The position numbers were made by a program, and so were the translations under genes. Source: an uncultured Porphyromonadaceae bacterium (GTDB lineage: Bacteria > Bacteroidota > Bacteroidia > Bacteroidales > Muribaculaceae). Taken from it: a stretch of 50,992 bases of DNA. Shown piece by piece: positions 18,677-37,125 of this stretch. A model generated the notes under the pieces. The model saw only the letters and a list, made by a program, of their open reading frames with translations. It was not told the DNA's origin and did no database searches. How positions within the stretch are numbered: position 1 is the stretch's first letter; every line of letters starts with the position of its first letter. Location of the stretch: positions 1-50,992 of the forward strand of contig CAMVDK010000001.1 in NCBI GenBank assembly GCA_947166165.1, read 5' to 3'.

Positions 18677-18734
18677 GAATTGAATTGGTGATGAATGCGT
18701 TAAAAGGGCGTCGAGGCCGCCGCGGGGAGGCGCG

Positions 18735-19775
18735 TCAGTTGAGGTGGATGAGTGTGCCGGGGCGCGGACGGGTGGAGGTGTCTTTGAGCCCGTTGAGCCC
18801 GGCAAGTTTTTTCACCTTGATGCCGAAGAGCTGCGAGATGCTGTGCAGCGTGTCGCCCGGGCGGGCGGTGTAGCTGTTGCGGGCACCTTCATATTTGTCG
18901 CGCTTCGTGTCGAGATACACGATGTCGCCCTCGGTTAACTGGTTCTCTCCCTTGACCTCGTTGAAGCGGAAGAGCAGCTTCTTGTCGCTGATGTCGTAGT
19001 CGCGGCATACGTCGCCAAGCGTGCGTCCGGGCATGAGCACGATGCAGGGCACGCCGTTCTCGATGAGCTTGTAGTTCTCAACGGCGTGGTCGAGCCGCTG
19101 CTCCTCGGCGGTGATTTGGTCGTCGTTGAGCGTGACGAGGTCTTCGTCTTCGAATTCGGGCACGCTGTCGGTGTGCACGAGTCCGTTGTCGTTGTTGACG
19201 ATGGTGGTGCGGCGAATGATGCGGCGCACCACCACACGGCGGTCGCTGCCTCCTTGCAGCTTGCGCCCGTTGTTGATTTTGTAGAGTTGGAATCGCTCAA
19301 TGATGCCGATGAGCGACTCGGCATAGTCGGGGGCGGTGGCATAGCCGCAGGCTTTGATGCCGAAGGCCCAGCTGCGGTAGTCCCACCGGCTGTAGTTGTG
19401 CAACTTGCCGTAGCGCTGCGAGCTGCGGCTCAGCAGGCGTGCGTGGTCTTCGTACGACTCCATCGCGTTATGGTAGGCCTTGAATGTGCTCAGCCCGGGC
19501 TCGTCGTCCTTGGCCTTGGCCGAGCCGGCCGGCCCCACGCCCTTGATGCCGAAGTGGTTGTTGGACCGGCGGGTGAGCAGGCTCTTGCCGCAGCCGCTCT
19601 CGAGGATGCCTTGCGCCAGGGTGATGGAGGCGGGAACGCCGTATTTGTACTCCGTCTGCAAGGCCGCGTTCTGATACATGTAGATGTAGGCCCAAGCGTC
19701 GTCGTTGTATCCCGCCCGGCAGGCGAAGACCGTTGTCAGGGCGCACAGGGCCGCAAGGAGCAAGCGATGTTTCAT
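18735..19775 (-). CDS. Exported GH73 glucosaminidase/muramidase with C-terminal LysM domains
   Basis: Signal peptide; YGVPASITLAQGILESGCG, NNHFGIK, GYATAPDYA; LysM YTARPGDTLHSISQLFGIKVKKLAGLNGL. Start 19775. Confidence 0.9.
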   Translation of the reverse strand: MKHRLLLAALCALTTVFACRAGYNDDAWAYIYMYQNAALQTEYKYGVPASITLAQGILESGCGKSLLTRRSNNHFGIKGVGPAGSAKAKDDEPGLSTFKAYHNAMESYEDHARLLSRSSQRYGKLHNYSRWDYRSWAFGIKACGYATAPDYAESLIGIIERFQLYKINNGRKLQGGSDRRVVVRRIIRRTTIVNNDNGLVHTDSVPEFEDEDLVTLNDDQITAEEQRLDHAVENYKLIENGVPCIVLMPGRTLGDVCRDYDISDKKLLFRFNEVKGENQLTEGDIVYLDTKRDKYEGARNSYTARPGDTLHSISQLFGIKVKKLAGLNGLKDTSTRPRPGTLIHLN

Positions 19776-21032: not shown

Positions 21033-22859
21033 TCAGGGGTTGGTGTCGTCGAGGTTGACAAGTTTCACGGCCACGGGCATGGTCAGGCACGATTTGCGGT
21101 CGATGCGCTGCTGGAGCAGGGTGTCGAGTGAGATGCGTGTGGCCTGGTCGAAGTTCTTGCGGTCTTTGAACTCGATGTCGATGTAGAGCCCGCGTTGCAG
21201 CCCTTGTCCTCCCTCGGCACCGGCGACGTTGATTTTCACGAAGATGCGCTTGAACTCCTCGCGCCCGAAGTAGGCCATGATTTCCTTGCGCAGGAAGGCG
21301 TCGATGTCCATGCGGGTGAACAGCCGGTCGGCGGTCAGGGTGTGGTAGCGCAGCAGCTCGTAGCGCTGGTCGGGCGAGGCCTTGTCGCGTCCGCCCATGG
21401 CTCCCACCACCACTTCGGCGCTGCGCTCGAGCGAGGCGTTGTGCTGGCACTCCATGAGCATGCCGGCCTCGATGGCGTTGGCGGCGGCTCCCTGTGTGGT
21501 GAGGAAGGCCACGCGCACCGAGCTCGAGCCGCTGTTGGTGGCGTCTTCGACAGCGATGTTCTTCATGGCGAAGGTGCCGCTGTCGTAGTTGTAGCGCCGG
21601 TTGGTGCCTTTGACGGCCTTTCCGAGCGCGGTGATGGTGGAGCGCAGCGAGCGAATGGTCTCGCCGTCCTTGATGCCATTGTAGTCGATAAAGGCGTAGT
21701 AGTCGTCGACGAAGCGGTTGTAGAGCATGCGCACGTCGCGGAACAGGTCGCCGTTGTTGTAGACGGCGGCGTCGAAGTCGCGCACGATGAAGTCGCGGTC
21801 GTTGGCGGGGAATCCTTGCCGCTGGGCGTCGTTGCTCTGCTCCACCACGTTGAGGAAGAAGGCGTCGTCGTGCTTCTGCAGCTTGGCGATGGGTGCCGAG
21901 GGGGTGAGCGTGACCGTGTTCAGGTCCACATTGGCGACGGGCACCACGTTGAGCTCCACGCGGCAGGCGTCGGGCACGTCGAAGCCCTCGGGGAAGTCGA
22001 GCCGGAGCCAGAGCGAGTTGCCCTTGAAGTGGTCGAGCTGGTGGCTCTCGAGCCAGTGCTCAAAGGCGTGGGGATAGGGCCTGGGCTTGAACAGGTCGCG
22101 GTCGGTGACCGGGTCGGTGATGTAGAGCAGGCAGGCGTTGTTCATGTCGAGCAGCTGCTCTTTCCAGGCCTCGACGTAGGCAAAGAACCGTCCGGAGGCC
22201 TGCTGGGCGTCGAAGGGTTCGAGCATGTCGATGTCCTCGAGGCGTTGCATGGTGGCGAAAGCGAGCTGCTGCTTTCCGCTGCCCACCACGATGCGCGCCG
22301 GGGCCACACCGCGCGTGCCGCGCACCAGCAGGCTCAGTCCGCGCAGGCACTCCACTTCGGCGGTGGTGGTGATGCCCACGTAGAGCTGGCTCGCGTTGGG
22401 CATGTCGATGTCGATCACCTCGCCCTGGTGCCGCAGGCAGCGCTTGCCCAGGGTGTAGAGGTCGGTGTGGGCCACGAGCTGCGTGGCGAAGATGGGGGCG
22501 AAGTTGAGCGCCGGCAGGGCGGGTGTATGCTTGGGGTCGGCCTTGGTCTTGAAGGTGGTGTCGGCGCCCAGTGTCACCAGCTCGTTGCCCGGGCGCTGCT
22601 TCACCTTGGCCTCGACCAGGGCGATGGCGGGCATGGCCTCGATGCTCTGCCGGGGGACGAAGTCGTCGGCAAAGCGCTGGGCGATGCGCTCGCTGGCACC
22701 GTCGGCAAAGTCGCTGATTTTCTGGCACTCGTGAAGCAGGGCCACGAGCATCATGCGCTGCACGGGGTCGAGCTGGCTGTAGTCGGCGGGTTGCCCGCCG
22801 GTGAGCTGTCGGGCCTGCTCGAGGGCTTCGTTGAGGCGTTTTTCTAGTTCAATGTCCAT
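21033..22859 (-). CDS. tssF: T6SS-iii baseplate protein TssF (divergent)
   Basis: About 608 aa, N-terminal LDPVQRMMLVALL, LWLRLDFP...LNVVPVAN, AMGGRD...LRYHTLTADRLFTRMDI; follows tssG-tssK-tssE. Confidence 0.75.
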   Translation of the reverse strand: MDIELEKRLNEALEQARQLTGGQPADYSQLDPVQRMMLVALLHECQKISDFADGASERIAQRFADDFVPRQSIEAMPAIALVEAKVKQRPGNELVTLGADTTFKTKADPKHTPALPALNFAPIFATQLVAHTDLYTLGKRCLRHQGEVIDIDMPNASQLYVGITTTAEVECLRGLSLLVRGTRGVAPARIVVGSGKQQLAFATMQRLEDIDMLEPFDAQQASGRFFAYVEAWKEQLLDMNNACLLYITDPVTDRDLFKPRPYPHAFEHWLESHQLDHFKGNSLWLRLDFPEGFDVPDACRVELNVVPVANVDLNTVTLTPSAPIAKLQKHDDAFFLNVVEQSNDAQRQGFPANDRDFIVRDFDAAVYNNGDLFRDVRMLYNRFVDDYYAFIDYNGIKDGETIRSLRSTITALGKAVKGTNRRYNYDSGTFAMKNIAVEDATNSGSSSVRVAFLTTQGAAANAIEAGMLMECQHNASLERSAEVVVGAMGGRDKASPDQRYELLRYHTLTADRLFTRMDIDAFLRKEIMAYFGREEFKRIFVKINVAGAEGGQGLQRGLYIDIEFKDRKNFDQATRISLDTLLQQRIDRKSCLTMPVAVKLVNLDDTNP

Positions 22860-22870: not shown

Positions 22871-23401
22871 CTATGCGTTGGAACGTCGTTTGAGCGTGGG
22901 CTCGACCATGAAGGTGACCACCTTCCGGTAGTCGAGGCTGTCGATGCCGTCCTTGATGCGCCCGGTGACCACCACGTTGACCATGTATTTCGAGTTCACC
23001 CTTCGGTAGCGCTTGCTGGCCACGGGCACGGCGAGTTCGATGCTGGTGTTCACGTCGAGCAGCATGGGTGCGTAGGCGCGCAGGCTGTTGGTCACGCTCT
23101 GCTGGCACTGCTGGCGGGTGATTTCGTCGTTGATGCTGCACTGCTGCCCGTTGTTGAAGTCGCGGTGGCTGACGTTGGAGAACTCGTGGCTCCAGTACTC
23201 GAACCCGAAGTCGGGGTCGGCGGCAAATCCGCCGCGCGGGGTGAAGACAACGAGTTCGACCATGTTGTCGACCACGGCCACGGTGTCGCGCAGCTCACGT
23301 TTCAGCTCTAGCGGCTGCACGACTTCGGTCACGTTGCGGTGCAGCTCGGTGGAGAGGTAGGTGCGCTCCACGTAGCCCAGGGGGGTGCTGAGGTAGGTCA
23401 T
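22871..23401 (-). CDS. tssE: T6SS baseplate TssE / gp25-like protein
   Basis: DNMVELVVFTPRGGFAADPDFGFEYW...VTNSLRAYAPML is the GPW/gp25 pattern; directly before tssF. Confidence 0.7.
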   Translation of the reverse strand: MTYLSTPLGYVERTYLSTELHRNVTEVVQPLELKRELRDTVAVVDNMVELVVFTPRGGFAADPDFGFEYWSHEFSNVSHRDFNNGQQCSINDEITRQQCQQSVTNSLRAYAPMLLDVNTSIELAVPVASKRYRRVNSKYMVNVVVTGRIKDGIDSLDYRKVVTFMVEPTLKRRSNA

Positions 23402-23417
23402 TGTCAACGAATGGGCG

Positions 23418-24410
23418 TCAGACGGTGAGGATGCGGATGCTGTCGGGTTTTGCCGGTGGTGGCGTGGGCGCGGGCTTGGGCTCAGGACGGCGCGGCGGAG
23501 CAGGCTGGGGCGCGGGCTCGGCGGCCGGGAAGGCGTCGATGCGCTCGGCGATGGCGGCGCACAGGCTCAGTCCCTGGATGATGAGTTGCCGCACGTTCTG
23601 CTCCGAATAGGGGGCGTAGGCATAGTTGAGCCAGTCGCCGGCCTCACTGAGCGCGATGTGGTGGCTCACCTGGCATGCGCCCACGAAGGTGCCCACGCAT
23701 TGCTGCACGAGTCCCAGCAGTTGCATGGGTGTGAGGGTGTCGCGCTGCTTGTCGGCGGTGATGCGCAGCGTCCGCAAGTGCGGCAGCAGCAGGGCAATCA
23801 CGTCGCGTCCGGCGCTGTCGAGCTGAGCCAGGGCGCTTCTCTCGATGGCGGCGAGCTGGTTGAGCAACTGCTCGAGCAGCTGCACGAAGGCGGGGTGCGA
23901 CGACACGAACAGGCACGGAGGCACGAAGTCGATGTCGTCGACCTGCCACGACACGTTGTGCACCAGCCGCGCCACGGGCAGCGCGTTGCCGGGCAGCGCG
24001 GAGTCGGCCCGCTGGAGCTGCAGCCGGTAGGCGGGTTCGCAGCAGCCGTCGTTGGTGGGACGCAACTCGCCGTCGGGCACGGCGATGGTGAGCAGATAGG
24101 GCTGACCGGAATCTTCTTTCGGCAGCGGCACGCGGGTGTCGAAGTTGCTGGTGAAGCGCGAGTCCCAGCTCACCTCCACAAGGTGGCCGCCGCGCGTCAG
24201 GCCCAGGCACTCCATGCTCTCGACCTCGGCGAAGTCGGTGCTGATGTTCACGCTCACCTTGAAGGGTCGCAGGCCGGGAAAGAGACCGAAGCGTCCGGCG
24301 GCGGCCAGCGCCAGGGCTTGGCCGATGTGGGCGGCGGTGTGGGCGTCGGCGTGGCGGAAAATCTCTTCGCTGAGCCGCATGCCCTTTTTCCAGTTGATTG
24401 TTTTAGGCAT
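23418..24410 (-). CDS. tssK: T6SS-iii baseplate protein TssK
   Basis: N-terminal INWKKGMRLSEEIF, ECLGLTRGGHLVEV, FVPPCLFVSSHP; Pro-rich tail. Confidence 0.78.
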   Translation of the reverse strand: MPKTINWKKGMRLSEEIFRHADAHTAAHIGQALALAAAGRFGLFPGLRPFKVSVNISTDFAEVESMECLGLTRGGHLVEVSWDSRFTSNFDTRVPLPKEDSGQPYLLTIAVPDGELRPTNDGCCEPAYRLQLQRADSALPGNALPVARLVHNVSWQVDDIDFVPPCLFVSSHPAFVQLLEQLLNQLAAIERSALAQLDSAGRDVIALLLPHLRTLRITADKQRDTLTPMQLLGLVQQCVGTFVGACQVSHHIALSEAGDWLNYAYAPYSEQNVRQLIIQGLSLCAAIAERIDAFPAAEPAPQPAPPRRPEPKPAPTPPPAKPDSIRILTV

Positions 24411-24476: not shown

Positions 24477-25364
24477 TCAAAGGTTGGTGTTGTAGGCCAG
24501 GAAATTGTGGCGTTCGGTGTCGTTGAGCCTGACGGCGGGCGCGCCGTCGGTCCAGATGTCGAACACGAGCTGCTGCTCGATGCCCAGGAACCAGTCCTGC
24601 ACGAATTGTCGCATGCGCTCGAGCTCGTCGACGGTGTCGAGAAAATGCTCGTCGCAGAGGTCGTCGCTCCAGTAGTGGATGGAGAACACGGTGGCGGAGT
24701 AGTCGAAGTCGTTGCCGGCGAAGCACTCGTCGAGCGCGTCGCCCATGCTGCACGGGTAGCGCGGCTCGGGGTCGTGGTGGGTGAGCGTGCGCTGGTCGAC
24801 GCGCAGGGTGAGTCCCTCGTCGGCGAGCACCTTGCGGAGCATGAGCGTGAGCAGCGTGCGGTTGCCGCGTATGCGTCGGCAGGCGGGCAGGAAGGGCAGC
24901 AGCGCGGCTATGAAGCGGTTGGCGCGTTGCTCGTCGGTGAGCCGGTCGCCGATGATGTGCTGGAGCACGGTGTTGCCGTGGCGGGTGTGCCGCTCGATGC
25001 GCTGCCTGATGTCGGTGCGCAGCAGCAGGAGCAGGGCGTCGAAGGGCGCGAAGAATTGCAGCGCGTGCTCCACTTCCAGCTTCTGACGGTCTACCTCGTT
25101 GGTGAAGGCGTTCTCGTCGCGCGACTCGTCGAGGCCGGCAAAGCGGTCCACGGTGTGGAACATGTATTCGGGCAGCGCGTCGTAGAGGCTGGCGCGCGCC
25201 AGGAGCAGCGTGGCGGCCTGCGGGTCGTGGGGGTCGTGCTCGATGGCCGCCACGTCGCCGGTGGCGTTGCGCTGGTGGGTGCTGGTGTGGCGCACCTGCA
25301 GCCGCATCCCGCAGTCGTGGGTCAGCAGCAGTTCGGCGTTGATGTCGTCGGGCAAATGCTTCAT
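24477..25364 (-). CDS. tssG: T6SS-iii baseplate protein TssG
   Basis: LARASLYDALPEYMFH and ALQFFAPFD match the Bacteroidota TssG pattern (RxxxYDxLPExxFH; FFxPFE). Confidence 0.78.
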   Translation of the reverse strand: MKHLPDDINAELLLTHDCGMRLQVRHTSTHQRNATGDVAAIEHDPHDPQAATLLLARASLYDALPEYMFHTVDRFAGLDESRDENAFTNEVDRQKLEVEHALQFFAPFDALLLLLRTDIRQRIERHTRHGNTVLQHIIGDRLTDEQRANRFIAALLPFLPACRRIRGNRTLLTLMLRKVLADEGLTLRVDQRTLTHHDPEPRYPCSMGDALDECFAGNDFDYSATVFSIHYWSDDLCDEHFLDTVDELERMRQFVQDWFLGIEQQLVFDIWTDGAPAVRLNDTERHNFLAYNTNL

Positions 25365-25389: not shown

Positions 25390-26580
25390 CTACGTCAGGT
25401 CGCCGGTGAGCTCGACGAAGAACTGCCCGCGGTCGGTGGTCACCTGCAGCACGTCGAGGGGCGGGATGCCCACTTGCTGCAGCGTGAGGTCGCCGTAGGG
25501 GAAGTCGTAGTCGAGGTTCTCGTAGAAGTGCTTGTGGAAGAGCGTGCGGTAGCTGAGCTGCCGCAGCTCGCGGTCGGAACTGATGTGGTGGTCGAGTCGC
25601 GACTCGGGGATCATCACGCGGAATTCGCGCTCGGGGTTGTCGCAGGCGATGAAGTCGATAAACTTGTTGTTGCACATGTTGATTTCCACCGCCTTGACGC
25701 CGAGTTCCTGCCGGAGCACATCGAGCGCGCGGGTCACGGTGAGCGAGGCTTTGAGCCTGGGGCACTCGCGCACGGGCTCCCAGCGCCGGTGTGCCGGGCA
25801 GTTGCTCTTCCAGGAGGCGAAGTTGTAGACCTTGGTGGTGCAGTTCATGCCCTCGTAGCGGAGCATCTTGCCGGTGAGCGATTTGAACGGTGTGGGCTCG
25901 CCGGACTCCTGGTGGATCACCTTGAGTGCCTCCTGCACCTGCATGGCACCGATGATGGATGCGCTCACGGGCGTGGTGGCCACCCGTCCGGCGCTGGACT
26001 GTGTGCGCACCACGTCGGCGCAGCCCGTGCGCAGCATGATGTGGTTGAACTCCTCGCGCGAGAGTCCGCATTCGTAGCAGTTCACCCCGGGCGCGTAGAC
26101 GCGCACCACGCCGGTCAGGTTCTCGATGCTGCCGTCCACCCAGGTCTTCCCGGCGCGCATGCACAGGCGGTTGAGCTGGTAGCGCGCCAGCCGGCTGTCG
26201 AGGCAGCCAATCACCACATCGGCGCGGCGGTAGATTCCGAACCCCACCTCCGAGAACAGATTGCCCACGATGGCGTCGACGCGGATTTGCGGGTTGATTT
26301 CCATGGCGCGCTCGGCCACCACCTGCGCCTTGTAGGCATGGCTGAAGGCGTCCTGCTCGCGGAAGAGCACCGAGCGCGTGAGGTTCGACACCTCGATGCG
26401 GTCGAAGTCGACCACGGTGATGTGCCCCACGCCGAAGAGGGCCAGGTTCTTCACCACCTCGTTGCCCAGCGCTCCGGCGCCGGCTACAAGCACGTGGGCG
26501 TTCTTCACGCGGTCCTGCTTGAACCACGAGAGCAGGGTGTAGACCCCCTCGCCCCATTCATATTTACGTTCGTCGGCCAT
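25390..26580 (-). CDS. E1-like ubiquitin-activating enzyme (ThiF/MoeB/E1 family)
   Basis: VAGAGALGNEV, DFDRIEVSNLTRSVLF, GCLDSRLAR, CYEC, candidate catalytic Cys in RTGC, CPAH, C-terminal extension ending LTLQQVGIPPLDVLQV. Confidence 0.9.
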   Translation of the reverse strand: MADERKYEWGEGVYTLLSWFKQDRVKNAHVLVAGAGALGNEVVKNLALFGVGHITVVDFDRIEVSNLTRSVLFREQDAFSHAYKAQVVAERAMEINPQIRVDAIVGNLFSEVGFGIYRRADVVIGCLDSRLARYQLNRLCMRAGKTWVDGSIENLTGVVRVYAPGVNCYECGLSREEFNHIMLRTGCADVVRTQSSAGRVATTPVSASIIGAMQVQEALKVIHQESGEPTPFKSLTGKMLRYEGMNCTTKVYNFASWKSNCPAHRRWEPVRECPRLKASLTVTRALDVLRQELGVKAVEINMCNNKFIDFIACDNPEREFRVMIPESRLDHHISSDRELRQLSYRTLFHKHFYENLDYDFPYGDLTLQQVGIPPLDVLQVTTDRGQFFVELTGDLT

Positions 26581-26586: not shown

Positions 26587-28989
26587 TCAGTCTTTTTCGA
26601 TGTAAAGGAACACGGTGTCGCCAATCTGGAAGGAGTCGCCGTTGGCGAGCACATGCTCGCCATTAACTGGCAGCTCGTTGCGCTGGTTGAACATCACGCC
26701 GGTGGCCAGCGGCTTGATTATGGGCAACTTGCGCGTCTGCTCGATGTAGAGCTGCGCGTGCTCCTTGGCCACCTTGTTGCTCACCTCCCAGTTCATCTGG
26801 ATTTCGCAGTCGCCAATCATGCCTATGGTCACCATGCGTCCGCCACCGGTGGCGTTCATCCACTTGTGAATGGGAATCTCGGTGCCCTGCTTGGAGCCGT
26901 TCTGGATGACGAGGAAGTAGCGCTCGGCCATCATGCGCACGGTGGCAATCGAGGCTCCGAGCCCGCCGCCGTAGATGATGAAGTTGAGCAGCATGGTCAT
27001 CCAGGGGCTCTGCGAGCTGGAGAATCCCGAGAACATGAGCACGATGAATCCGATCACGGCTGCAGCGAGTCCGCCGAGCAGCGCGCTCTTCAGAGGGATG
27101 GAGCTGCCTATGCACAGGCTGAGCGAGAAGCACACCGAGAAGAGCAGGTAGGCGGGCAGCGAGCAGTACCAGGGAATCACGGTGCCGTTGAGCGCGCCCA
27201 CCCACAGGCTGAACAGCCATCCGCCCAGGGCGAAGGCCGCCATGCCTATCAGCGCCGAGAGCAGCGACAGGCCCACGATTTTGAGCACAATCAGGGCGTT
27301 CTTCTGCCGGTACTCGTCGTTGTAGCGGAAGATGAACGAGAGGAAAAATCCCAGCAGCAGTCCTATGGCCAGAAACGCGGCCACCTTGGTGACGCACTCG
27401 TTCCACACGGGGCTGGAGCCGTCGAGGGCGGCGCCCACAATCCGCTTGGCCATCGGCGCGAACAGGTTGCCGCGGCCAATGAGCTCGTACACCACCCAGC
27501 TCACCAGCGCCGCCACGATGCCGGCCAGCGTCTGGCTCACGTCGCGCATCGACTCGCGGGTGAACATCAAGTTCCAGTCCACGTGGGGTTGGATGCCGGT
27601 TTTGCAGCTCTGCCCGTAGTCGGTGCAGTGGAAGCCGTTCTGCTGCCAGCAGTGGATGTGCATCAGGTGGTTGCACTTCTGCACCACCTTCTGTCCGGGC
27701 AGGATGTCTTGCGCGCAGTAGCGGCATATGATGCGGTTCACGCCCGGCTTGGGCACGTAGGGTTTGTAGTATTTCACGGCAAACGACTTCTGCTTGACGA
27801 GCGGAATGATGATTTTGGCCACGATGAAGAAGAAGGCGAAGGTGAGCAGGGCCACGAGCAGGGCCATGAGGTATTTCATCACGGTGCTGCCGCCGTCGTT
27901 GTCTTCGGGCGGGAAGGGGTTCTCGCTGGTGCCGATGGTCATCTCGCCGCTGCCGATGTCGTTGCCCTCCCACGAGGCCAGGTAGCGCACAGTGTTGCCG
28001 TTGTACACCTTGTTGGCCTGCACGGCGTAGATGATGTCGTAGTCGTAGGCGGCGTCGTCGACCGTCTGCTGGAAGTCGGCCATGGCCTGGTTCATGTCGG
28101 TGGTGGAGAAGAACTTGCCCACGCGGCGCTCGTCCACCACCTGCCCGTCGGAGTCCTTGGGTTTTGACACAAACACGAGCGACTCGCGCATCATGTCGTT
28201 CACCTCGCCGGTGTTGTAGAGGAAGGCGTAGACTCTGGGCGCGGCGGCCGAGAACTTGTAGTCGCGGATTTTCAGGAAGTCGGCGTAGTCCTCAAGCACG
28301 GGATACTGGCTTCCGTTGGCAATCACGAAGAGGAAGTTTTTGCCCGGGTTCTTGGCGGCACGGTCGGCAATGGCGGCGTTCTTGGTGTAGCCGCTCTCGA
28401 GCTTGAGGCTGTCGCTGAGGGTGGCCGTCTCGAATTCGAGCAGCTTGGCCAGCATGCCGCTGTAGAAGTAGTTCTCGCTGCTGGGCTTGTTGAGCTTTTC
28501 CTTGAAGGCCGGCAGTGTGGCCTTGGTCACCACTTCGCTGGAAGTGACGGCGTCGCCGTAGAAGGCCAGGTACACACATCCCTCGGGGGCCGAATTCACG
28601 AGTTCCTCGATGGCGGTGTAGATTTTATCCTTGTCGGGGATGTTGAGGTCGACCAGCACCAGGAAGGTGTAGTCTTCGCCGATGCGCTGTCCGCCGCCCT
28701 TTCCCACCGCCTTGACGGTGATGTTTTTGGAGTCGATGCGGTGCTCAAAGTCGTTGATGTCGACCGCGTCTTCGAAGAGGTAGAGCTTGTCGCGCAGCTC
28801 GTTGGGCGCGATGCCGCGAATGGGGTTGCCGCTGGCGTCGAGCAGCTTCACGTGCAGGGCGATGCTGTCGGGCTTCTGCGCGGCAGCAATGGTGGTTTTG
28901 CCGCAGAACTGGATTTGTTTCACTTGCTGCGCCTGCAGGGGCAGCGCCAGGCACAGCAGCAGCCATGCCGCCAGGCAGAGGCGCATCAT
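26587..28989 (-). CDS. Multi-pass membrane protein: exported N-domain, RING-like finger, TM bundle, C-terminal FHA (candidate E3)
   Basis: Signal peptide; TM MKYLMALLVALLTFAFFFIVAKIII; CRYC-x13-CNHLMHIHC-x7-C-x6-C; about 6-7 further TMs; FHA-like VTIG...CEI...VAKEHAQL...LANGDSFQIGDTVF. Start 28989 overlaps the upstream stop (ATGA); alternative start 29007. Confidence 0.75.
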   Translation of the reverse strand: MMRLCLAAWLLLCLALPLQAQQVKQIQFCGKTTIAAAQKPDSIALHVKLLDASGNPIRGIAPNELRDKLYLFEDAVDINDFEHRIDSKNITVKAVGKGGGQRIGEDYTFLVLVDLNIPDKDKIYTAIEELVNSAPEGCVYLAFYGDAVTSSEVVTKATLPAFKEKLNKPSSENYFYSGMLAKLLEFETATLSDSLKLESGYTKNAAIADRAAKNPGKNFLFVIANGSQYPVLEDYADFLKIRDYKFSAAAPRVYAFLYNTGEVNDMMRESLVFVSKPKDSDGQVVDERRVGKFFSTTDMNQAMADFQQTVDDAAYDYDIIYAVQANKVYNGNTVRYLASWEGNDIGSGEMTIGTSENPFPPEDNDGGSTVMKYLMALLVALLTFAFFFIVAKIIIPLVKQKSFAVKYYKPYVPKPGVNRIICRYCAQDILPGQKVVQKCNHLMHIHCWQQNGFHCTDYGQSCKTGIQPHVDWNLMFTRESMRDVSQTLAGIVAALVSWVVYELIGRGNLFAPMAKRIVGAALDGSSPVWNECVTKVAAFLAIGLLLGFFLSFIFRYNDEYRQKNALIVLKIVGLSLLSALIGMAAFALGGWLFSLWVGALNGTVIPWYCSLPAYLLFSVCFSLSLCIGSSIPLKSALLGGLAAAVIGFIVLMFSGFSSSQSPWMTMLLNFIIYGGGLGASIATVRMMAERYFLVIQNGSKQGTEIPIHKWMNATGGGRMVTIGMIGDCEIQMNWEVSNKVAKEHAQLYIEQTRKLPIIKPLATGVMFNQRNELPVNGEHVLANGDSFQIGDTVFLYIEKD

Positions 28990-31259
28990 CTTTTTCGTCT
29001 TGTCCATATCTTTAAGTCTTCTAATTTGTTTACACCATAATAGTTCTCGTCGCTGCACAGTTCTCCGCCGTGCACCGGAATGGCGGTGAGCTCGTCGGTG
29101 CTGGTGGAGTAGAAGAGCACGAAGTGCAGCTTGGCCAGCTCGTCGGCCACGGTGCGCCGGATGGAGGGCAGGCTGCGGTGGCTGTCCACCACCAGGCATC
29201 CCACGAGTTCCTTTCCGGCCAGGGTGCGCTCGCTGGTCACGCGGTCGGCCACATATTCGGCCAGGTCGCCCTTGGTGCGCGTGTATCCCTGCACGTAACC
29301 CACCAGTCCGGTGGTGGGCGCGGCGGTGAGCTGCGTGATGTCGATCACCGTGCCGTTGCTCAGTTCCACACCGCGGCACTCGTCGCGGCGCGAGTGGCAG
29401 CCCGTGAGTGCGTTGAAGTAGTCCTGCGGGTTGAAGGCGCTGCGCTCGCTGGCAATGGCCCACTGGTAGAGCTCCTCGAGCGAGTACATGCGCTGCAGGT
29501 CGCCCTGAGCGGTGACCGTGCCGTCGCGCTTGAAGGTGAAGATGCCCGTGGTCTGGTCGGGCGTGAGGATGTCGACCACCATGGCGGTGAGGAAATAGGG
29601 CTGTGTGGGGTGCTTGAGCTGGTTGTGCACGTTGTTGTCGCTGCTGGAGAAGAACACGCCCAGGCCCGGGTGTGAGTGCACCCAGCAGGTGAGGTCGTAC
29701 TGCAGCCCGCTCTCGCGGCGCAGACGGCGCAGCTTCTCGTTGACGCTGAGCTTGATTTTCCCGCCGAAGTTCAGCTCATATTCGGCAAAGACGGCATCGT
29801 CGCCGGGCATGACCACCTGCTCGAGGGTGACGTCGAACTTGTCGCTCTGTCCGTCGAGCACCCATCGTCCGAGCACCATGCAGCCGTCTTCCTTGGGGTT
29901 GGCGGGGTTGCGGAGGTCTTCGGCATACATGTTGTAGATTTCCTTGACGCAGGTGTTCTTGATGTAGATGCGGCGCACGGCCGAGTCGGGACACATGTCG
30001 GCGGTCTCGATGCAGAGGTAGCTGTCGTTGCCCTCCACGTCGCTGATGTCCTGCCGCTTGAGCACCGAGGTGGTGCGTCGGCGCACCACGATGCCGTCGG
30101 CGCCACCGCCTGCTGTCTGTCGGCCGGTTGCGGCCGGCGCCGTGGGGCCGCCCGTGGCGGGAGCCGATGTGGGCGTGGCGGGCCGGCGGTTGCGCCCCTG
30201 GCCCTTGTTGCGGTAGATCCAGTAGGCCCCGCCGGCCAGCAGGGCCAGCACGGCGAGCATGGCGAGCAGCGCGGGCCAGTTGCTCCCCTTTGTGGGTGGT
30301 TCGACGGGCTTGTATTCCACATTGGCCATCTGGCTGAGCTTCTGCAGTTGGTCGTTGCGCCGGTCGAGGTGTGGTATGACCAGGTTGCGCAGTTCGTCGC
30401 GCGTCGCGCTCATGTCGGCGATGTCGCCTTTGCTGTACCGGCCCAGGAAGTCGTCGATCATCTGGTCGCATCCGTCGCTTTGCTTCTGGAGCGTTTCGCG
30501 TTCCTGCTCGATGTAGGCTTTGATATTGTTGGCCAGCACGTATTGCTGCTTCTGGCCGTCGCTCATGCCGGCGAATTCGCCCACAAGGCGGTCGATGTAG
30601 GCCTGCTGCTCGGCGATGTCGTCGGCGTTGTAGAAGGGCAGGGTGGCGAGGTGGGTGGCGAAGTCGGACTTGATTTGCTCAAGCGGGATGGACTCGCGCA
30701 TGGGTTGATTGTCGGTGACAGTCGGTGTTTCTCTGGTATTCTCCCGCTCGCGCTTGTCGTTGTCTTTGCGCTTGCTGTTGTCGGCCACGGCGGGTTTCTC
30801 GGGCTCGGATGGCTTTTCGGTTTTGTTTGTGGTGACAGGGTTGACGACAACCGGCTCGGTGGGCGGGGTGGGTTCGGGTGTCTTCGTTTGTGGCGGAGGT
30901 GCCGGTGTACCCTTCAACCGCGAGGCGAGTTCTGAGGCTTTTTTATCACGGATGCCGCTGTTGTACAGAAGCCTGATGTTGTCATCATCGCCTTTGAAAC
31001 TGAATCGGATTTCTCTTGCAGTGGCGAAGCTTTTCTCCGAGTTTTTACTGATGCTTGCCACATGCTTGCCGTTTCTGTAAACGTTGATGACATCGGCGGT
31101 GGTGTTCTTGACCGTAAAGTTCTTGAAGTCTCTTCCTGTTGGCGTCAACTCGGCGTAGAGATCGACGCCGCTGGCTCGAGAGATGAGTTGCCTGTCGGCG
31201 GCGTGGCCCGCTATGGATAAACACAGGAGCAGAAGGCTTAAAAGGATATATCTATTCAT
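28986..31259 (-). CDS. Single-pass membrane JAB/MPN+ (JAMM) metallo-isopeptidase
   Basis: Signal peptide MNRYILLSLLLLCLSIAGHA, TM WPALLAMLAVLALLAGGAYWIY, then KEDGCMVLG...WVHSHPGLGVFFSSSD (E...HxHx7Sx2D). Start 31259. Confidence 0.85.
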   Translation of the reverse strand: MNRYILLSLLLLCLSIAGHAADRQLISRASGVDLYAELTPTGRDFKNFTVKNTTADVINVYRNGKHVASISKNSEKSFATAREIRFSFKGDDDNIRLLYNSGIRDKKASELASRLKGTPAPPPQTKTPEPTPPTEPVVVNPVTTNKTEKPSEPEKPAVADNSKRKDNDKRERENTRETPTVTDNQPMRESIPLEQIKSDFATHLATLPFYNADDIAEQQAYIDRLVGEFAGMSDGQKQQYVLANNIKAYIEQERETLQKQSDGCDQMIDDFLGRYSKGDIADMSATRDELRNLVIPHLDRRNDQLQKLSQMANVEYKPVEPPTKGSNWPALLAMLAVLALLAGGAYWIYRNKGQGRNRRPATPTSAPATGGPTAPAATGRQTAGGGADGIVVRRRTTSVLKRQDISDVEGNDSYLCIETADMCPDSAVRRIYIKNTCVKEIYNMYAEDLRNPANPKEDGCMVLGRWVLDGQSDKFDVTLEQVVMPGDDAVFAEYELNFGGKIKLSVNEKLRRLRRESGLQYDLTCWVHSHPGLGVFFSSSDNNVHNQLKHPTQPYFLTAMVVDILTPDQTTGIFTFKRDGTVTAQGDLQRMYSLEELYQWAIASERSAFNPQDYFNALTGCHSRRDECRGVELSNGTVIDITQLTAAPTTGLVGYVQGYTRTKGDLAEYVADRVTSERTLAGKELVGCLVVDSHRSLPSIRRTVADELAKLHFVLFYSTSTDELTAIPVHGGELCSDENYYGVNKLEDLKIWTRRKR

Positions 31260-31302: not shown

Positions 31303-32712
31303 TCAGATGGAGATGGTGCCGTCTTTGTCGCGGTTCTTCTTGATTCGCGCTCCTTGAGCGGCCCGCCGCGCTTTGTCCTGCAGCGACTCGTTGGCTCGGT
31401 TGGCCTTTCGCTGTGCAGCAGTCTCGGCTGTCGTTTCGGGCGTTTCGGGCGTGTCGGCGTGGCCGGTCGCGGGTTCGGCGGGCTGGTCGTTGCCGCGTCC
31501 GCGCCTGAAGGCGTTTCGCGCGGCTTGTCCGGCCTGGTCCATTTTGCCACGCACGGCGTTTTCGGCCGCTCGCTCGGCTTGGTGCACTTTCCGGTCTACG
31601 GCACGCCGTGCGGCGTGGGTCACCTTGTTCTCGGCCTGCTGCATGGCGCGGTCCTGCAGTTCCTGCATCGAGCGGGCCTGTGCGCGGTTGCGCAGGCTCT
31701 GCATCACCTGGTTGCCCACGAAGAGCAGCACGGCCAGCAGTCCGCCCAGGCCGAACATCCACCAGGTCTTCTTCTTTTCGTCCTCCAGGCGTTTTTGGTC
31801 GTCTTCGTGCTGTTTTTGGGCTTGAGCTTCAGCCTCGGCCTTGTCGGCGGCCAATTTGAGGGCTGCGGCATTCTTCTTGGCGTTGACCTGGCTCTCGATC
31901 TGGTTGATTTTCTCCAACTGCTCGGGCGTGGCGTAGGGTTTTGCGCCGGCGAGTTCGACAAAGAGTTTCGATGCTTCGTCGTTGAGCTGGTCGCCGGAGA
32001 GCGACAGGCAGGCTTCCATTTTGGCAATCAGGCTTTGGACATCGACACCAGCGTTGCCGTTGTCGCCCGGCAGGGGTACGCCTTCTCCTCCCTCAACGAC
32101 GCGCTCTTCGACCACCTCTTCGGTGGTCGAAGTGCCGCTGCCTTTGGCGTTGGCCTGCGCATTGCCGGTTTGATTGTCGGTGCGCTTGGCCTTGGGCTGT
32201 GGAGCAGGCGGCGTGAGGTCGATGGTGAGCGGCTGCGAGAACTTGGCGATGATTTTGTGCTTGTGGGAACCCTTGTTGTGCACCAAGAAGACGGGCAGGC
32301 TCACGCTGGGGTTCTCGTTGCCAGCCAGGGAAAATGTCATGGTGTTGTATTGCCAGATTTCGCAATAGCCGTCGGTGGCACTTGTCACCGTGGCGTTGTT
32401 GGAGGAGAAAGTCTCGAGGTCGTGGCCGTTCCAGTCGATTTTTTCATCCTTGCTGAGTTTCTGCGAAGTGAAGAAAGCGAGTCCGAGTTCCTTCTCAGCT
32501 ATTTTTGCATGGCTGTGTCCCCTGCTTTTGATGTAGGGGTTGCGGGTGAATTGCACCATCATCTCCTGCCCCGAGCGCTCGACTGTGTAGTAGACCTCCA
32601 CCTGGTCGCCGTCGGTGGTGACGAGAGTCTCTTTTTTTTCGGGAGTCTGGGTGGCCAGCGCCAGGGCGGCCCACAGCACGGCAAGCCCGATGACTGAGAT
32701 GCGTTTCATCAT
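31303..32712 (-). CDS. Hypothetical bitopic membrane protein with coiled-coil segments
   Basis: Signal peptide MMKRISVIGLAVLWAALALA, Ala/Glu/Lys-rich helix, TM WWMFGLGGLLAVLLFVG, Ala/Arg/Gln-rich tail; ATGA overlap with the upstream gene. Confidence 0.7.
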   Translation of the reverse strand: MMKRISVIGLAVLWAALALATQTPEKKETLVTTDGDQVEVYYTVERSGQEMMVQFTRNPYIKSRGHSHAKIAEKELGLAFFTSQKLSKDEKIDWNGHDLETFSSNNATVTSATDGYCEIWQYNTMTFSLAGNENPSVSLPVFLVHNKGSHKHKIIAKFSQPLTIDLTPPAPQPKAKRTDNQTGNAQANAKGSGTSTTEEVVEERVVEGGEGVPLPGDNGNAGVDVQSLIAKMEACLSLSGDQLNDEASKLFVELAGAKPYATPEQLEKINQIESQVNAKKNAAALKLAADKAEAEAQAQKQHEDDQKRLEDEKKKTWWMFGLGGLLAVLLFVGNQVMQSLRNRAQARSMQELQDRAMQQAENKVTHAARRAVDRKVHQAERAAENAVRGKMDQAGQAARNAFRRGRGNDQPAEPATGHADTPETPETTAETAAQRKANRANESLQDKARRAAQGARIKKNRDKDGTISI

Positions 32713-33989
32713 TTGATGCTGTTGTAATATTTCATGAATGTCTTCCCTGCCTTGCCGTGAGCCTTGGCGCATTCAAGCAGTTTGTTGGCTTCGGCTTTCG
32801 CTTGCTTGCCCTTCATGGCCAGGCTGGCGATTTTCTGGTTGAATTGGGCCTGCGAGTAGTTGCAGTAGCTGCATGGCTTGTGGCCGCCCACGATGGTGTT
32901 GTAATACTCTTGCGCTTTTTGCACGTTGTCTTTGTGATGCTTGGCACATTTCAGCATTTCGGTCGCTTGGTTCTTTTGTGCTCGGGTGGCGCTGCCGGAG
33001 TTGGAGACTTTCGTGGCCAGGCTTTGCAGGTCTCTGACCGCGTGTCCGCAATACTTGCAATTGTGCTTCTGCTCAGGCTTTGGCGGCTTTATTCGGCATT
33101 TTTTGCAAGTGTAGTGGAGGTCGTCGCCGTTGACAAGGTCGATCGAGGTGCCGATGCGCTGGATCAGGTCGTTGGCGGCGGTCCATCGCTTGGTCTGCGG
33201 GGCGTAGCGGTTCCTGAGCGTTTCGGCGCGGCTTTTCAGGATGGTGAGCTGCGAGATGACGCCCGCTTTCTGGTTCTCAAGCGATGGGGAGTGATTCTTG
33301 CCCACGCAGAACATGGGCTTCTGCGGGTCGATGCCCAAGCCGGCGAATTGGCTCTCGATGTCCTGCAGCTCGGTGTCGGGCTGGGCGGAGCCTTCGACGG
33401 TGATTTTGAAGTCGTTGGCGGCCCAGTGGCTGATTTTCACCTCTTTCTCGCTGCTCTTGTCGCTGAGGTAGGCGGGCAGATGGAAATTGCAGGAAGTGCC
33501 ATATGGCACGGCGATGCGCGCGAATTGCAGCGACTCTTTGCTGCGAACCACGGCCACCTCGCTATTGAAGGCCTTGCTCTTGCTGTTTGCCGCAGAGGCC
33601 ACAAACCAGGCGTAGTCTAGTGGTTCGCGCTCTTCTTTCTTCTTTTTGGTGAAGCGCTTGACGATGTCGGCTTTTTCGTTGTCGAACTTGATTTTGGGGT
33701 TCTTGAATTTTTTCACCTTGTCGATGTAGTCGAAACTGTCGTTGAAGACGACTAGGGTGAAATAGTCGGGGCTTTGGTTGTTCATGACCAGCGAGAGCAT
33801 GAGTCCTCCGCCGTCGCCGTCGTCATAAGGCTCGCCCTGAATCACGAGTTCAAAATCTTTGCAATCGAACGTGTGCGAGAGCTTGTTGTCGCTCAGGGTT
33901 GTGGAGTAGGAGCCTTGCGCGCTGGCCAGTGGGGCCATCGAGCACAGGCACAGCAGTGCCGCTATGGAGTGGGTGCAGATTGGTTTCAT
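32709..33989 (-). CDS. Hypothetical exported protein with Cys/His C-terminal repeats
   Basis: Signal peptide MKPICTHSIAALLCLCSMAPLASA; two C-terminal units CxYC...CAKxH; ATGA overlap with the E2 stop. Confidence 0.7.
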   Translation of the reverse strand: MKPICTHSIAALLCLCSMAPLASAQGSYSTTLSDNKLSHTFDCKDFELVIQGEPYDDGDGGGLMLSLVMNNQSPDYFTLVVFNDSFDYIDKVKKFKNPKIKFDNEKADIVKRFTKKKKEEREPLDYAWFVASAANSKSKAFNSEVAVVRSKESLQFARIAVPYGTSCNFHLPAYLSDKSSEKEVKISHWAANDFKITVEGSAQPDTELQDIESQFAGLGIDPQKPMFCVGKNHSPSLENQKAGVISQLTILKSRAETLRNRYAPQTKRWTAANDLIQRIGTSIDLVNGDDLHYTCKKCRIKPPKPEQKHNCKYCGHAVRDLQSLATKVSNSGSATRAQKNQATEMLKCAKHHKDNVQKAQEYYNTIVGGHKPCSYCNYSQAQFNQKIASLAMKGKQAKAEANKLLECAKAHGKAGKTFMKYYNSIK

Positions 33990-34654
33990 ATCGTGAAGGT
34001 TTTTTTGTTGGGTTTGTCGGGTGTGGGGTCGGTGGGTGCTGAGGGTGGCGCGGGCGGCTGCTGCGCGGGCTGGTCGTCGTCGGCGTCCTTCTGCGCGAAG
34101 CGCACCCATCCGTTGGGCTCGGCCTCGTCGCGCACCCACTCGGCCACACCCTGGTCTTCGGGATAGGGGTAGGTGTTCTGCGCGTGGTAGAGTTTGTACT
34201 TGAGATACATCTCCACGCGTAGCACGAGGTCGCGCAGCGAGGCGAGTACGCCCATCTCCTTGATGGTGAGGCACACGTGGCCCTTGAAACTACCCGACGA
34301 ACGGATGTTGGGGTGCCAGATGTCGCTGATGAAGGTGAAGATGGGGTTGCCGTCGGCCGAGGGATAGTTGTTGGGCAGCACGATGCTCATCTTGTGCAGG
34401 TCGCCGAAGATGGGCTTTCGCGGTGCTGGGCCGTCGGCCACGCCCACAATGGAGCGCACGCGGTAGCGTATTTCGTATTCGGTGGGCAGGCCCACCACGT
34501 TCTTGCGCCGCACGATGTAGCTGATGCTCGGCTGGCGCGGGTTGGCGGCGCGGCGCTTTGTGCACAGCTCGTCGAGGGCGAACCATTCTTGCCACAGGCG
34601 CATGTCGCGGCCCGAGAGCTCTTTCTGGTTGAAACGCTTGAGTGCTTCGTTCAT
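33986..34654 (-). CDS. E2 ubiquitin-conjugating-enzyme-like protein
   Basis: IVLPNNYPSADGNPIFTFISDIWHPNIRSSGSFKGHVCL: UBC-fold YP...P, HPN and downstream Cys. Confidence 0.88.
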   Translation of the reverse strand: MNEALKRFNQKELSGRDMRLWQEWFALDELCTKRRAANPRQPSISYIVRRKNVVGLPTEYEIRYRVRSIVGVADGPAPRKPIFGDLHKMSIVLPNNYPSADGNPIFTFISDIWHPNIRSSGSFKGHVCLTIKEMGVLASLRDLVLRVEMYLKYKLYHAQNTYPYPEDQGVAEWVRDEAEPNGWVRFAQKDADDDQPAQQPPAPPSAPTDPTPDKPNKKTFTI

Positions 34655-34777: not shown

Positions 34778-35101
34778 TCAGCCGGCGATGGGCACCGAAA
34801 TCAGGTGGAGCAGGTCGCCCGAGAGCACGTTGTAGTCCTCGAGGATGAGCTCGCGGCCATACTCGTCCTCGTAGTCGAGGATGGTGAGGTCGTCGTCATC
34901 GAGCCCGAGCAGATACTGCACGGGGTTGCCGCCGCCGTCCATTTTGGGCAGCTCAAACACGTTGACGATGCTTTCCACTTGTTCGCGGAGCGACTTGTAG
35001 GGGTCTTGGATTTTGATTTCCACTTCTTCGTACTCGCTTCCGTCGATGGTGAGCCGGATGATGAAGTCACCTTCGTGCAGGTCAGACATATTGTCAATCA
35101 T
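34778..35101 (-). CDS. Ubiquitin-like (beta-grasp, YukD/EsaB-like) protein ending in Gly
   Basis: 107 aa, very acidic; LPKMDGGGNPVQYLL...LILEDYNVLSGDLLHLISVPIAG-stop resembles ubiquitin [22 protein letters not shown]; adjacent to the E2. Confidence 0.8.
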   Translation of the reverse strand: MIDNMSDLHEGDFIIRLTIDGSEYEEVEIKIQDPYKSLREQVESIVNVFELPKMDGGGNPVQYLLGLDDDDLTILDYEDEYGRELILEDYNVLSGDLLHLISVPIAG

Positions 35102-36060: not shown

Positions 36061-37125
36061 TCACCATACCCAGGCTCCACTGGGCTGGCGGTAGTTGGCG
36101 CTGCGGTGGTGCTCGAACTGGTTTTTGAACACGATGAGCTGGAAGCACTCTTCGTCGATGAGCACGGGTTGCTGGAGTCCGTAGCGCATGAGTGCGAGTT
36201 CGTAGTGGTGCTTGTCGGGGTCGAAGTGCAGCAGCAGGTCGACGCGCGAATCGCGGTGGGCACCGTAGATTCTGGCGAAGATGGGCGCGAGGAGCTCGGC
36301 GTCGAGCCAGAAGTAGGCGGTCCACTCGCTGCTTAGGTTGTGCCAGGCCACGGCGATGCGCTCGGGCATGCCGGCCATGTGGTGGCGCGTGAGCGTGTCG
36401 TCGTGCAGGCGGTGCAGGGTGCCGTCGGTGCAGGCGATGTGCAGGTGGTCGAGCTCGTGGGGCGCGTCGTCGTCGGTGGCGGTGTGTGGCTGCCAGCGTG
36501 GGTCGCCGTCGGGCCGCCAATGCTCGAAAAGGGGCATCAGGCGGTAGCAGTACTGCGCCATGAGCCGGTCGAACAGGTTGCGGGGCGGCAGGCCGTTCAG
36601 GCGCAGGTTGTGGCACACGCGGGTGTCGTTGTTGATGTAGAAGTCGCAGTTCTCGTCGAGCGTCGTGGTGGGGTTGCCGGGCATGAAGCGGGCCATGTCG
36701 ACCTCGGCAGGCTCGCCCTGCAGCCAGCACACGAGCACAGCTTTGTTGGCTCCCCGCAGCCACAGGGCCACCTGTCCGTAGGGCGCCATGCCCACCACGA
36801 TGTGGGTGAACAGCGGCTCGCCGGTGTCGGGGTCGGAGAGTTGCCACAATTCCTCCATGCGTTCCGTGGGCAGGTCGGCCTCAAGGCTGTAGAACTGCCG
36901 CTCCACAATCGAAAGCCACACCATGTCGAGCCGCCGTGGCATGGGAAACAGCTCCTGCTCAAGCAGATGGGAGGAGATGATTTCGCCCCACGCGCCTCTG
37001 TAAGGATACCTCTTCGGCACCTCCAGCGCCTCGTCGGGCTTATACCAGAGCAGGGCAAAAAAGGTGTCGGCCGGCCACAATTCCGGAGCCGAGCCCGAAA
37101 CAAGAATGTTGTACGTTTTTGCCAT
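36061..37125 (-). CDS. DUF2931-family protein, probable Tle1 immunity protein
   Basis: GAWG...PMPRRLDMVWLSIVERQFYSLEADLP...IVVGMAPYGQVALWL; directly downstream of the DUF2235 effector. Confidence 0.75.
   Translation of the reverse strand: MAKTYNILVSGSAPELWPADTFFALLWYKPDEALEVPKRYPYRGAWGEIISSHLLEQELFPMPRRLDMVWLSIVERQFYSLEADLPTERMEELWQLSDPDTGEPLFTHIVVGMAPYGQVALWLRGANKAVLVCWLQGEPAEVDMARFMPGNPTTTLDENCDFYINNDTRVCHNLRLNGLPPRNLFDRLMAQYCYRLMPLFEHWRPDGDPRWQPHTATDDDAPHELDHLHIACTDGTLHRLHDDTLTRHHMAGMPERIAVAWHNLSSEWTAYFWLDAELLAPIFARIYGAHRDSRVDLLLHFDPDKHHYELALMRYGLQQPVLIDEECFQLIVFKNQFEHHRSANYRQPSGAWVW

Follow-up and report, generated by a model that had tools for sequence, protein, structure and literature searches.

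We analyzed a stretch of 50,992 nucleotides (the window) from an uncultured Porphyromonadaceae bacterium, which GTDB places in the Muribaculaceae (GenBank assembly GCA_947166165.1, contig CAMVDK010000001.1), and report on one of its genes, an uninterrupted frame at 26587-28989 on the minus strand with a translation of 800 aa. The predicted protein, called the RING protein below, has a periplasmic vWA domain, a RING-H2-type finger, a bundle of transmembrane (TM) helices and an FHA domain. It is very probably, judging from sequence, the ligase (E3) of a conjugation cascade whose ubiquitin-like protein (Ubl), activating enzyme (E1), conjugating enzyme (E2) and JAB peptidase are encoded next to it, within a type VI secretion system of subtype iii (T6SSiii) that lacks tssN. 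We lean, with some reserve, towards a cascade that acts on T6SS anchoring or baseplate docking. By about the same slim preference, we take the RING protein to serve as E3 and also as scaffold of a membrane anchor that replaces the usual one, where conjugation of the Ubl would control how the baseplate docks.

An earlier reading of the gene from its letters, made with no database searches (the sequence-only reading), had described a Cys/His cluster with the spacing of a RING-H2 or prokaryotic RING finger. The motif is there exactly, as C422-x2-C425-x13-C439-N-H441-x2-H444-x2-C447-x7-C455-x6-C462. A total of 825 homologues were found among 7998 candidates scored, and we looked at conservation in a close set (the best 120 of the 825 matches, with best local identity of 49-70%) and in a deep alignment of 122 rows at 16-70% identity. 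Neither the eight ligands nor W448 varies in any of the close homologues (120/120), and 113/122 deep rows retain the full set of ligands, so the motif is not due to chance. The ligand order C3H2C3 (C-C-C-H-H-C-C-C) holds in the same 120/120 and 113/122. Among the nine deep rows without a full set, ligand 2 is Asp in three, ligand 8 is missing as aligned in one, and the other five belong to one clade (P0176, P0247, P0248, P0251 and P0269) in which ligands 2, 5 and 6 are lost, ligand 1 is also lost in four members, and 3, 7 and 8 are kept. The ligands that go together are those of the first site of a cross-brace, unlike what a LIM-type finger predicts, and they were probably lost in a single event; the loss resembles the degeneration of SP-RING or U-box-like domains. 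A search with the region of the finger (no text words) gave 153 cluster representatives, and among the 150 listed, 116 are 730-890 aa long.

The cross-brace fold that had been expected is also what the structure searches favor. Using the predicted finger (mean predicted local distance difference test, pLDDT, of 76.8), the top Foldseek rows were the RINGs of RNF38, RNF13, RNF12 and Ark2C (prob 0.89-0.97, E 0.04-0.1). The top six VIA rows were all RING E3s, with Z scores of 6.4, 5.5, 5.3 and 5.2 among them and a root-mean-square deviation (rmsd) of 4.2 A over 67 aligned residues for the best. In profile comparisons, ligands 1-7 are in register with Pirh2 and HRD1 (E 0.001-0.003). Position 424 is hydrophobic in at least 115/122 homologues and position 456 is Pro in 90/122 (Thr in the query), features which we take to resemble those of E2-binding RINGs. 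LIM, C1 and PARP-type fingers were set aside, as they scored under the RING rows and the pattern of co-loss does not fit them. We consider a RING-type cross-brace fold likely because these modest scores combine with one another and with the gene context.

The start codon of the RING gene and the stop codon of JAB, the next gene upstream, overlap (ATGA, 28986-28989), and the named homologues nearest to the protein are from Muribaculaceae. An AlphaFold2 model of the whole protein, built from the 122-row alignment, has a pLDDT of 89.8 and a predicted template modeling score (pTM) of 0.77. From the N to the C terminus it shows a signal helix, a periplasmic part with the vWA between beta segments, TM1, the finger, six membrane helices and a beta-sandwich. 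A20 and Q21, on either side of the predicted cleavage site, are nearly invariant in the homologue alignment. In 31 homologues the mean number of K/R rises from 0.6 ahead of TM1 to 4.5 behind it; loops 3-4, 4-5, 5-6 and 6-7 average 4.4, 0.1, 1.8 and 0.6, respectively, the stretch past TM7 averages 2.3, and loop 2-3 is neutral (2.2 K/R vs 3.0 D/E over 30 residues). Because the loop charges alternate, given a cleaved signal peptide, we predict seven TM helices with the RING and the FHA both cytoplasmic. A periplasmic finger was rejected on the same charges, in line with the earlier expectation that both domains face the cytoplasm. Taken with the ligand conservation and the predicted fold of the finger, none of the three outcomes named in advance as refuting the sequence-only reading came about. 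The bundle of about six or seven helices noted at first stands as a bundle, and its count is now six after the finger and seven in all. A plasmid search with a distant homologue of the RING protein had no match, and an ESM Atlas search via the homologue P0039 gave only Bacteroidota FHA clusters.

The FHA domain scores under the Pfam threshold in the query (E 0.0034) and above the cut-off in many distant homologues. Its model matches known FHA structures with a Z of about 15 and an rmsd of 1.4-1.8 A over 94-98 residues (for DgcB, Z 15.4, 1.8 A, 98 aligned). As the sequence-only reading had said, the query has G723-M724 and A741-K-E-H744 and so lacks the G-R and S-x-x-H residues that bind phosphothreonine (pThr). 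G723 is kept in 121/122 homologues, where the next residue is K in 58, R in 34 and M in 12, while S-x-x-H is found in 10/122 and both motifs together in 4/122. The domain is thus conserved in sequence and probably does not read pThr, which bears out the earlier suggestion that it may be phospho-independent. A PDB sequence search with the FHA gave no relevant match.

The exported vWA-like domain had been called weak, and it turned out to be real: among 24 distant members of the RING family scanned, 11 exceed the Pfam cut-off for vWA, and the model matches ArnB with a Z of 16.9 and an rmsd of 2.6 A over 166 residues. Its metal ion-dependent adhesion site (MIDAS, DxSxS) is incomplete. The query reads D-L-N-I-P; D114 is present in 121/122 homologues, position 116 is T/S in 106/122 and position 118 is S in 31/122, so only the first MIDAS Asp is consistently kept.

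The genes around the RING gene make up the rest of the cascade. The terminal G107 of the Ubl is invariant in 28/28, the E1 motifs GxGxxG and CxxC-x14-17-C are found in 69/69, HPN and Cys128 of the E2 are invariant in 37/37, and the JAB motif is present in 25/25, with a signal peptide and a TM helix before the JAB catalytic domain. Members of the Ubl family weakly match YukD, Rad60-SLD and ubiquitin (for YukD, 11/28 members at E up to 1, best 1.3e-5), and the Ubl profile matches ubiquitin chains. The cascade looks functional as far as its conserved residues tell. Ubl, E1, E2 and RING are linked and keep their catalytic residues, as in a tri-ligase operon, and JAB is linked in the window and in 18/18 GTDB loci. 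The proposal that the RING protein is the E3 for the neighboring Ubl, E1 and E2 gains from this linkage and from the intact catalytic residues.

In the window the order of genes is upxY-tssH-tssB-tssC-tssD-tssD-vgrG-DUF4280-Tle1-like-DUF2931-orf-Ubl-E2-orf-orf-JAB-RING-E1, followed by tssG-K-E-F-orf-glucosaminidase-kinase-PP2C-WG-kinase-WG (Table 1). The tail and baseplate core genes of T6SSiii are therefore present, with weak evidence for TssE. We named TssE, TssF and TssG by position and by matches of hidden Markov models (HMMs) to genes of canonical loci.

Table 1. Coordinates of the RING protein, its parts and the neighboring genes in the window.
Feature	Position	Strand	Basis
vWA-TM-RING-6TM-FHA protein, 800 aa, predicted membrane E3 and scaffold	26587..28989	-	open frame; homologues; model
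Signal peptide, predicted cleaved, residues 1-20, then Gln21	28930..28989	-	hydropathy; cleavage inferred
Periplasmic vWA, about residues 105-315, beta-strand segments on both flanks; incomplete MIDAS	28045..28677	-	Pfam in homologues; structure search
TM1, residues 371-396, out to in	27802..27879	-	hydropathy, model, loop charges
RING-H2-type finger, C422 C425 C439 H441 H444 C447 C455 C462	27604..27726	-	alignments, structure and profile searches
TM2-TM7 bundle, residues 485-688, plus extra helix 508-521	26926..27537	-	hydropathy, model, loop charges
Cytoplasmic FHA, residues 689-800, degenerate pThr site	26590..26925	-	Pfam, alignment, structure search
T6SSiii genes upstream: upxY, tssH, tssB, tssC, tssD x2, vgrG, DUF4280, Tle1-like effector, DUF2931	36061..48892	-	Pfam
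Ubl, 107 aa, terminal PIAG	34778..35101	-	invariant Gly; profile matches
E2, UBC fold, HPN and Cys128; tail ends in Ile	33986..34654	-	Pfam UQ_con E 4.6e-6, just under cut-off
Exported protein, unknown family, signal peptide, no TM	32709..33989	-	weak profile likeness to c1 of architecture 2 (prob 35)
Single-pass membrane protein, basic cytoplasmic tail ending in Ile	31303..32712	-	no Pfam family
Membrane-anchored JAB/MPN+ peptidase, signal peptide, TM 327-345, E457, H528-S-H530	28986..31259	-	Pfam, motif
E1, ThiF family, GxGxxG, CxxC, predicted catalytic Cys187	25390..26580	-	Pfam ThiF E 8.5e-52
TssG; tssK next, no tssN between	24477..25364	-	family HMM vs canonical tssN-adjacent gene E 1.6e-23
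TssK, Pro-rich C-terminal tail	23418..24410	-	Pfam
TssE-like (gp25-like)	22871..23407	-	position; weak HMM match to a gp25, E 0.0022
TssF-like	21033..22859	-	family HMM vs canonical tssN-adjacent gene E 6.5e-22; named by position and size
Accessory genes downstream: glucosaminidase-LysM, two Ser/Thr kinases, PP2C, two WG-repeat proteins	10689..19775	-	Pfam; not found in architecture 2

The RING gene is uncommon. It was found in 4/400 sampled Bacteroidales genomes, 2/400 genomes of a phylum sample and 9/251 of one family sample (which includes its center genome), and isolate genomes with the system include Xylanibacter muris PMUR and Palleniella intestinalis PINT. The block JAB-RING-E1-tssG is present in 18/18 GTDB loci, with Ubl and E2 in all 16 that have enough upstream sequence, and kinases follow the locus in 12/18. 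A second architecture, deeply divergent, has the order E1-tssG-K-E-F-Ubl-E2-c1-c2-RING (L031-L110, the best 80 of 240 metagenome matches, as well as G1008:C23 and G1013:C15). Of its loci with more than 9 kb upstream, 47/48 have Ubl, E1, TssG, TssK, TssE and TssF and 48/48 have E2. We found no JAB, kinase or PP2C in 80/80 of the architecture 2 loci; in the two complete ones (G1008 and G1013) no kinase or PP2C was found, and JAB was not found with the query used. A Firmicutes origin of this distant clade was dropped, because T6SSiii baseplate genes are present in its loci and the family of G404 includes two of its GTDB members. Upstream in architecture 2 lie a PEGA-domain protein and an RRF-like protein.

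In canonical T6SSiii, TssN is nearly ubiquitous, its gene lies between tssK and tssG, and in B. fragilis it docks TssK via a ubiquitin-like cytoplasmic domain (PMC10781749). In 70 loci of the system described here, the gap between tssG and tssK is at most 93 bp and holds no tssN. TssN was over the cut-off in 0/21 and 1/9 RING-bearing genomes and not in the window's own genome; G394 and G411 are the same genome, so the total is 1/30. The sole exception, G1008, has a second, canonical T6SSiii on other contigs (C17, C23 and C35 hold both systems). As a control we used the order sample, where TssN was found in 6/7 genomes with canonical TssC (the seventh has its TssC on a 6.6-kb contig) and the RING gene in 0/7, and where the 3 genomes with divergent TssC all have RING and no TssN. 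An unrooted TssC tree splits 8 canonical from 19 RING-locus sequences at 100/100, with the latter on two long branches; this split is partly by construction because the groups were set by TssC score and RING presence, and the relatives are not independent. TssO and TssR were sought only in the window's own genome (83% complete), where neither had a match, and no family search covered TssP or TssQ. Since the loci lack tssN, we believe that the RING protein may be structural as well as catalytic. G406:C6 carries a pair of neighboring tssC-like genes, of which the second falls on a long branch.

Several points weigh against a ligase in a replacement anchor. For the finger, no RING family of Pfam reaches its curated cut-off in HMM scans of the query and homologues. 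The profile search proposed earlier went the same way: Prok-RING_1 (PF14446) does not match the query and gives at most 22.7 bits in homologues, under the gathering threshold of 29.1 bits. The Foldseek E-values exceed 0.03, and taken alone a Z below 8 is not diagnostic. The final two ligands are spaced C455-x6-C462 in place of the canonical C-x2-C (the pair is similarly widened in homologues), and the five homologues of one clade have lost a zinc site. For the anchor, the Ubl resembles TssN neither in sequence nor in profile (prob 0.4, with three TssN sequences). The locus membrane proteins have no HMM or hhalign match to TssN, TssP or TssR, a weak test with few canonical sequences, and the replacement of TssN is therefore argued by analogy. 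The TssR model recovers only 2/5 canonical controls, and most of the genomes are drafts and related to one another. In addition, four RING-bearing genomes have no TssC match (G013, G133, G556 and G737), so the cassette is not specific to T6SS. G403 has no TssC match either, yet its RING locus carries baseplate genes.

These genomes show where else the cassette occurs. In G556:C65 (L125, L111) it is led by an nSTAND1 NTPase and is transcribed divergently from a locus of the extracellular contractile injection system (eCIS) type, which contains sheath, gp19 tubes, gp25, VgrG-like, eCIS-core and PAAR proteins. In G013:C685 (L023, L115) the cassette is followed by SrfB, SrfC, an S8 peptidase fusion and a second JAB protein. 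The G737 cassette adjoins PAAR and large effector-like genes, and the G133 contig is only 3 kb. Given such cassettes beside eCIS-type, SrfB/SrfC and PAAR loci in genomes with no TssC match, the cassette is a portable module, often linked to secretion or conflict machines. The tails of the NTPase and the E2 in G556 are alike and rich in Lys/Ile, and in G737 two residues of the Ubl extend past the conserved Gly.

Several of the T6SS and cascade proteins share a C-terminal tail. A terminal Ile after a low-complexity linker is found in TssK (66/71), in the single-pass partner of architecture 1, the arrangement seen in the window (14/14), and in c2 of architecture 2 (62/62). A terminal Ile is also present in the E2 (15/17) and TssE (9/17) of architecture 1. 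The background is 3.9% of 1358 long open reading frames in the window's own genome; because the tail sequences are related, the counts cannot be treated as independent. In the window itself TssK ends in Val, and three canonical TssK end in Asp. From sequence comparison we regard the shared Ile as a candidate docking tail and a lead for substrate choice; that the FHA binds it is a guess.

With a conserved RING that sits with Ubl, E1 and E2 inside T6SS clusters lacking tssN, the protein is the likely ligase of a tagging system, and we propose the following mechanism. The E1 would activate the Ubl and hand it from Cys187 to Cys128 of the E2. The cytoplasmic RING would bind the charged E2 (E2~Ubl) at the membrane and promote transfer to a nearby lysine, the likeliest target being the anchor complex itself (the RING protein or its single-pass partner) or TssK. 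A beta-grasp domain tethered to the membrane in this way would stand in for the cytoplasmic ubiquitin-like domain of TssN. Docking of the baseplate would then be conditional and, with JAB present, reversible. The periplasmic vWA may bind exported partners, and the FHA may bind peptides in the absence of phosphorylation, possibly the Ile-ending tails of TssK, the E2 and the single-pass partner. More tentatively, as a reading we would not yet back, the loci may represent an undescribed deep lineage of T6SS in which the TssNQOPR anchor is replaced by a membrane RING E3 complex, the docking site is built post-translationally, by conjugation of a free Ubl in place of the fused ubiquitin-like domain of canonical systems, and substrates are recruited via Ile tails.

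The alternative that survives best also has the RING protein as an E3, with conjugation serving cargo handling or quality control and other proteins anchoring the machine. Effectors, spike or tube proteins would be tagged for loading, or spent parts for TssH/ClpV. The same cassette beside the eCIS-type locus with PAAR and eCIS-core proteins (G556) and beside SrfB/SrfC (G013) would fit this, as would the Ubl gene directly after an effector-immunity block in architecture 1. We think it unlikely, as it leaves unexplained both the absence of tssN and the interleaving of E1 and Ubl with tssG-K-E-F, and gives no reason for RING and JAB both being membrane proteins.

We give a lower chance to a mainly structural membrane hub, with the finger as a zinc-binding interaction module and the Ubl bound non-covalently, like YukD/EsaB or the type VII EccD domain. 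Such a role is disfavored because it would not need the near-complete constraint seen on the E1 (69/69), the E2 (37/37) and the Ubl Gly (28/28), even though Ubl members match YukD, the RING scores fall short of threshold, a zinc site has gone in one clade and JAB was not found in architecture 2.

The sequence-only reading had favored a receptor-like sensor that could link the operon kinases to Ubl transfer; in the version weighed here, the FHA would read phosphorylation by these kinases and switch transfer on. FHA-kinase control is established in proteobacterial T6SSs (PMC13584744), which sets a precedent, and kinases follow 12/18 GTDB loci. However, the clade of the window has G-M and A-x-x-H at the pThr site, and both pThr motifs are found in only 4/122 homologues. 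Architecture 2 keeps RING, E1, E2 and Ubl yet shows no kinase or PP2C in 80/80 loci or in the two complete ones, so the kinase link is unsupported. We rejected it as a general mechanism and consider the sensor very improbable.

The weakest candidate, marginally less probable still, is an anti-phage defense module of the Bil kind riding as cargo in T6SS islands: characterized bacterial ubiquitination systems are antiviral (PMC11601596) and the cassette also occurs without T6SSiii, but PADLOC models (2.0 library, dated 2023) match none of RING, E2, Ubl and JAB and give only partial ThiF-region matches to the E1, and the cassette genes are mixed in with those of the baseplate, in two different orders, in TssC lineages that split deeply.

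Returning to a RING E3 in a replacement anchor, each half of the combination has known relatives. Burroughs, Iyer and Aravind reportedly predicted prokaryotic Ubl/E1/E2/RING/JAB tri-ligase operons in 2011, and bacterial members of PF14446 are described as carrying TM helices. The window resembles these in having Ubl, E1, E2, RING and JAB in one bacterial locus and a widened last ligand pair, and homologues of its RING protein have sub-threshold matches to PF14446. It differs in its H2-type ligands, its vWA-7TM-FHA architecture, its membrane-anchored JAB and its T6SSiii baseplate setting. A prokaryotic RING tri-ligase has also been tied to vWA-MoxR-FtsH ternary systems (PMC7159879), a context unlike this T6SSiii locus.

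Compared with canonical T6SSiii (TssNQOPR, PMC10781749; genetic architectures GA1-GA3, PMC4714493 and PMC8102008), the locus shares homologues of TssB, C, D, E, F, G, H, K and VgrG. Both also have, in one form or another, a polytopic hub in the inner membrane, single-pass helical proteins, a vWA in the periplasm and a ubiquitin-like domain. Unlike the canonical type, it has no tssN between tssG and tssK, its TssC is divergent, its membrane proteins have no detectable homology to TssN, TssP or TssR, and a free Ubl with conjugation enzymes stands where the canonical ubiquitin-like domain is fused.

The eukaryotic membrane RING-H2 E3s (the PA-TM-RING proteins RNF13, ZNRF3 and RMR1, as well as HRD1 and gp78) also have an extracytoplasmic domain, a TM helix and a cytoplasmic RING-H2, and are the best structure and profile matches of the window finger. 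They have a PA domain where the window protein has a vWA, and here the RING is in a loop before six TM helices, with a C-terminal FHA and the C-x6-C pair. The likeness to these E3s is in layout.

Bil, Bub and type II CBASS are bacterial sets of E1, E2, Ubl and deubiquitinase that were shown to conjugate proteins (PMC11601596, PMC11601603). As described in those papers, they differ from the window in having no membrane RING or secretion genes, and Bil and CBASS are antiviral. None of the characterized pathways described there involves a RING E3, and those of known role are antiviral. In full-text searches judged by title and abstract start, we found no T6SS with a ubiquitination cassette (Burroughs 2011 may list the architecture), and the word 'ubiquitin' occurs 0 times in the main texts of a 2026 review of T6SS accessory factors (PMC13584744) and of two GA surveys (PMC4714493, PMC8102008). 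The combination of a prokaryotic tri-ligase operon with T6SSiii was thus not found in print, while each kind is known.

The locus brings together Ubl, E1, E2, RING and JAB in one full cascade whose output can be measured (as Hcp secretion, sheath assembly or killing), and makes two open questions testable, namely whether prokaryotic RINGs act as genuine E3s and what anchors a T6SS that has neither TssJLM nor TssN. It also points to a class of T6SS, in Bacteroidales of the rumen and of animal and human guts, that surveys of GA1-3 would overlook. If the more tentative reading of an undescribed lineage is right, ubiquitin-type conjugation would assemble a bacterial secretion machine, and bacteria would have a working membrane RING E3.

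A few further observations concern the surroundings of the gene. Between RING and E1, eight loci (L004, L006, L007, L009, L012, L013, L014 and L016) have about 0.8 kb extra (about 0.9 kb in L006), which is not present in the window. In G1045, a single-contig genome, the locus (C1, about 2867000-2873000, L123) follows genes that by eye are ICE (integrative and conjugative element) mobilization-like and ParA-type, which suggests that the locus is mobile. After tssF in the window, a variable protein of 396 aa (19816-21006, minus strand) has an N-terminal segment with a weak peptidoglycan-binding-like match and several C-terminal hydrophobic segments, and it is possibly a membrane-active effector or a cell-wall anchor. 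The kinase-PP2C-WG-kinase-WG genes (10689-18676, minus strand) contain a duplication, with the kinases about 51% identical and the WG-repeat proteins about 33%.

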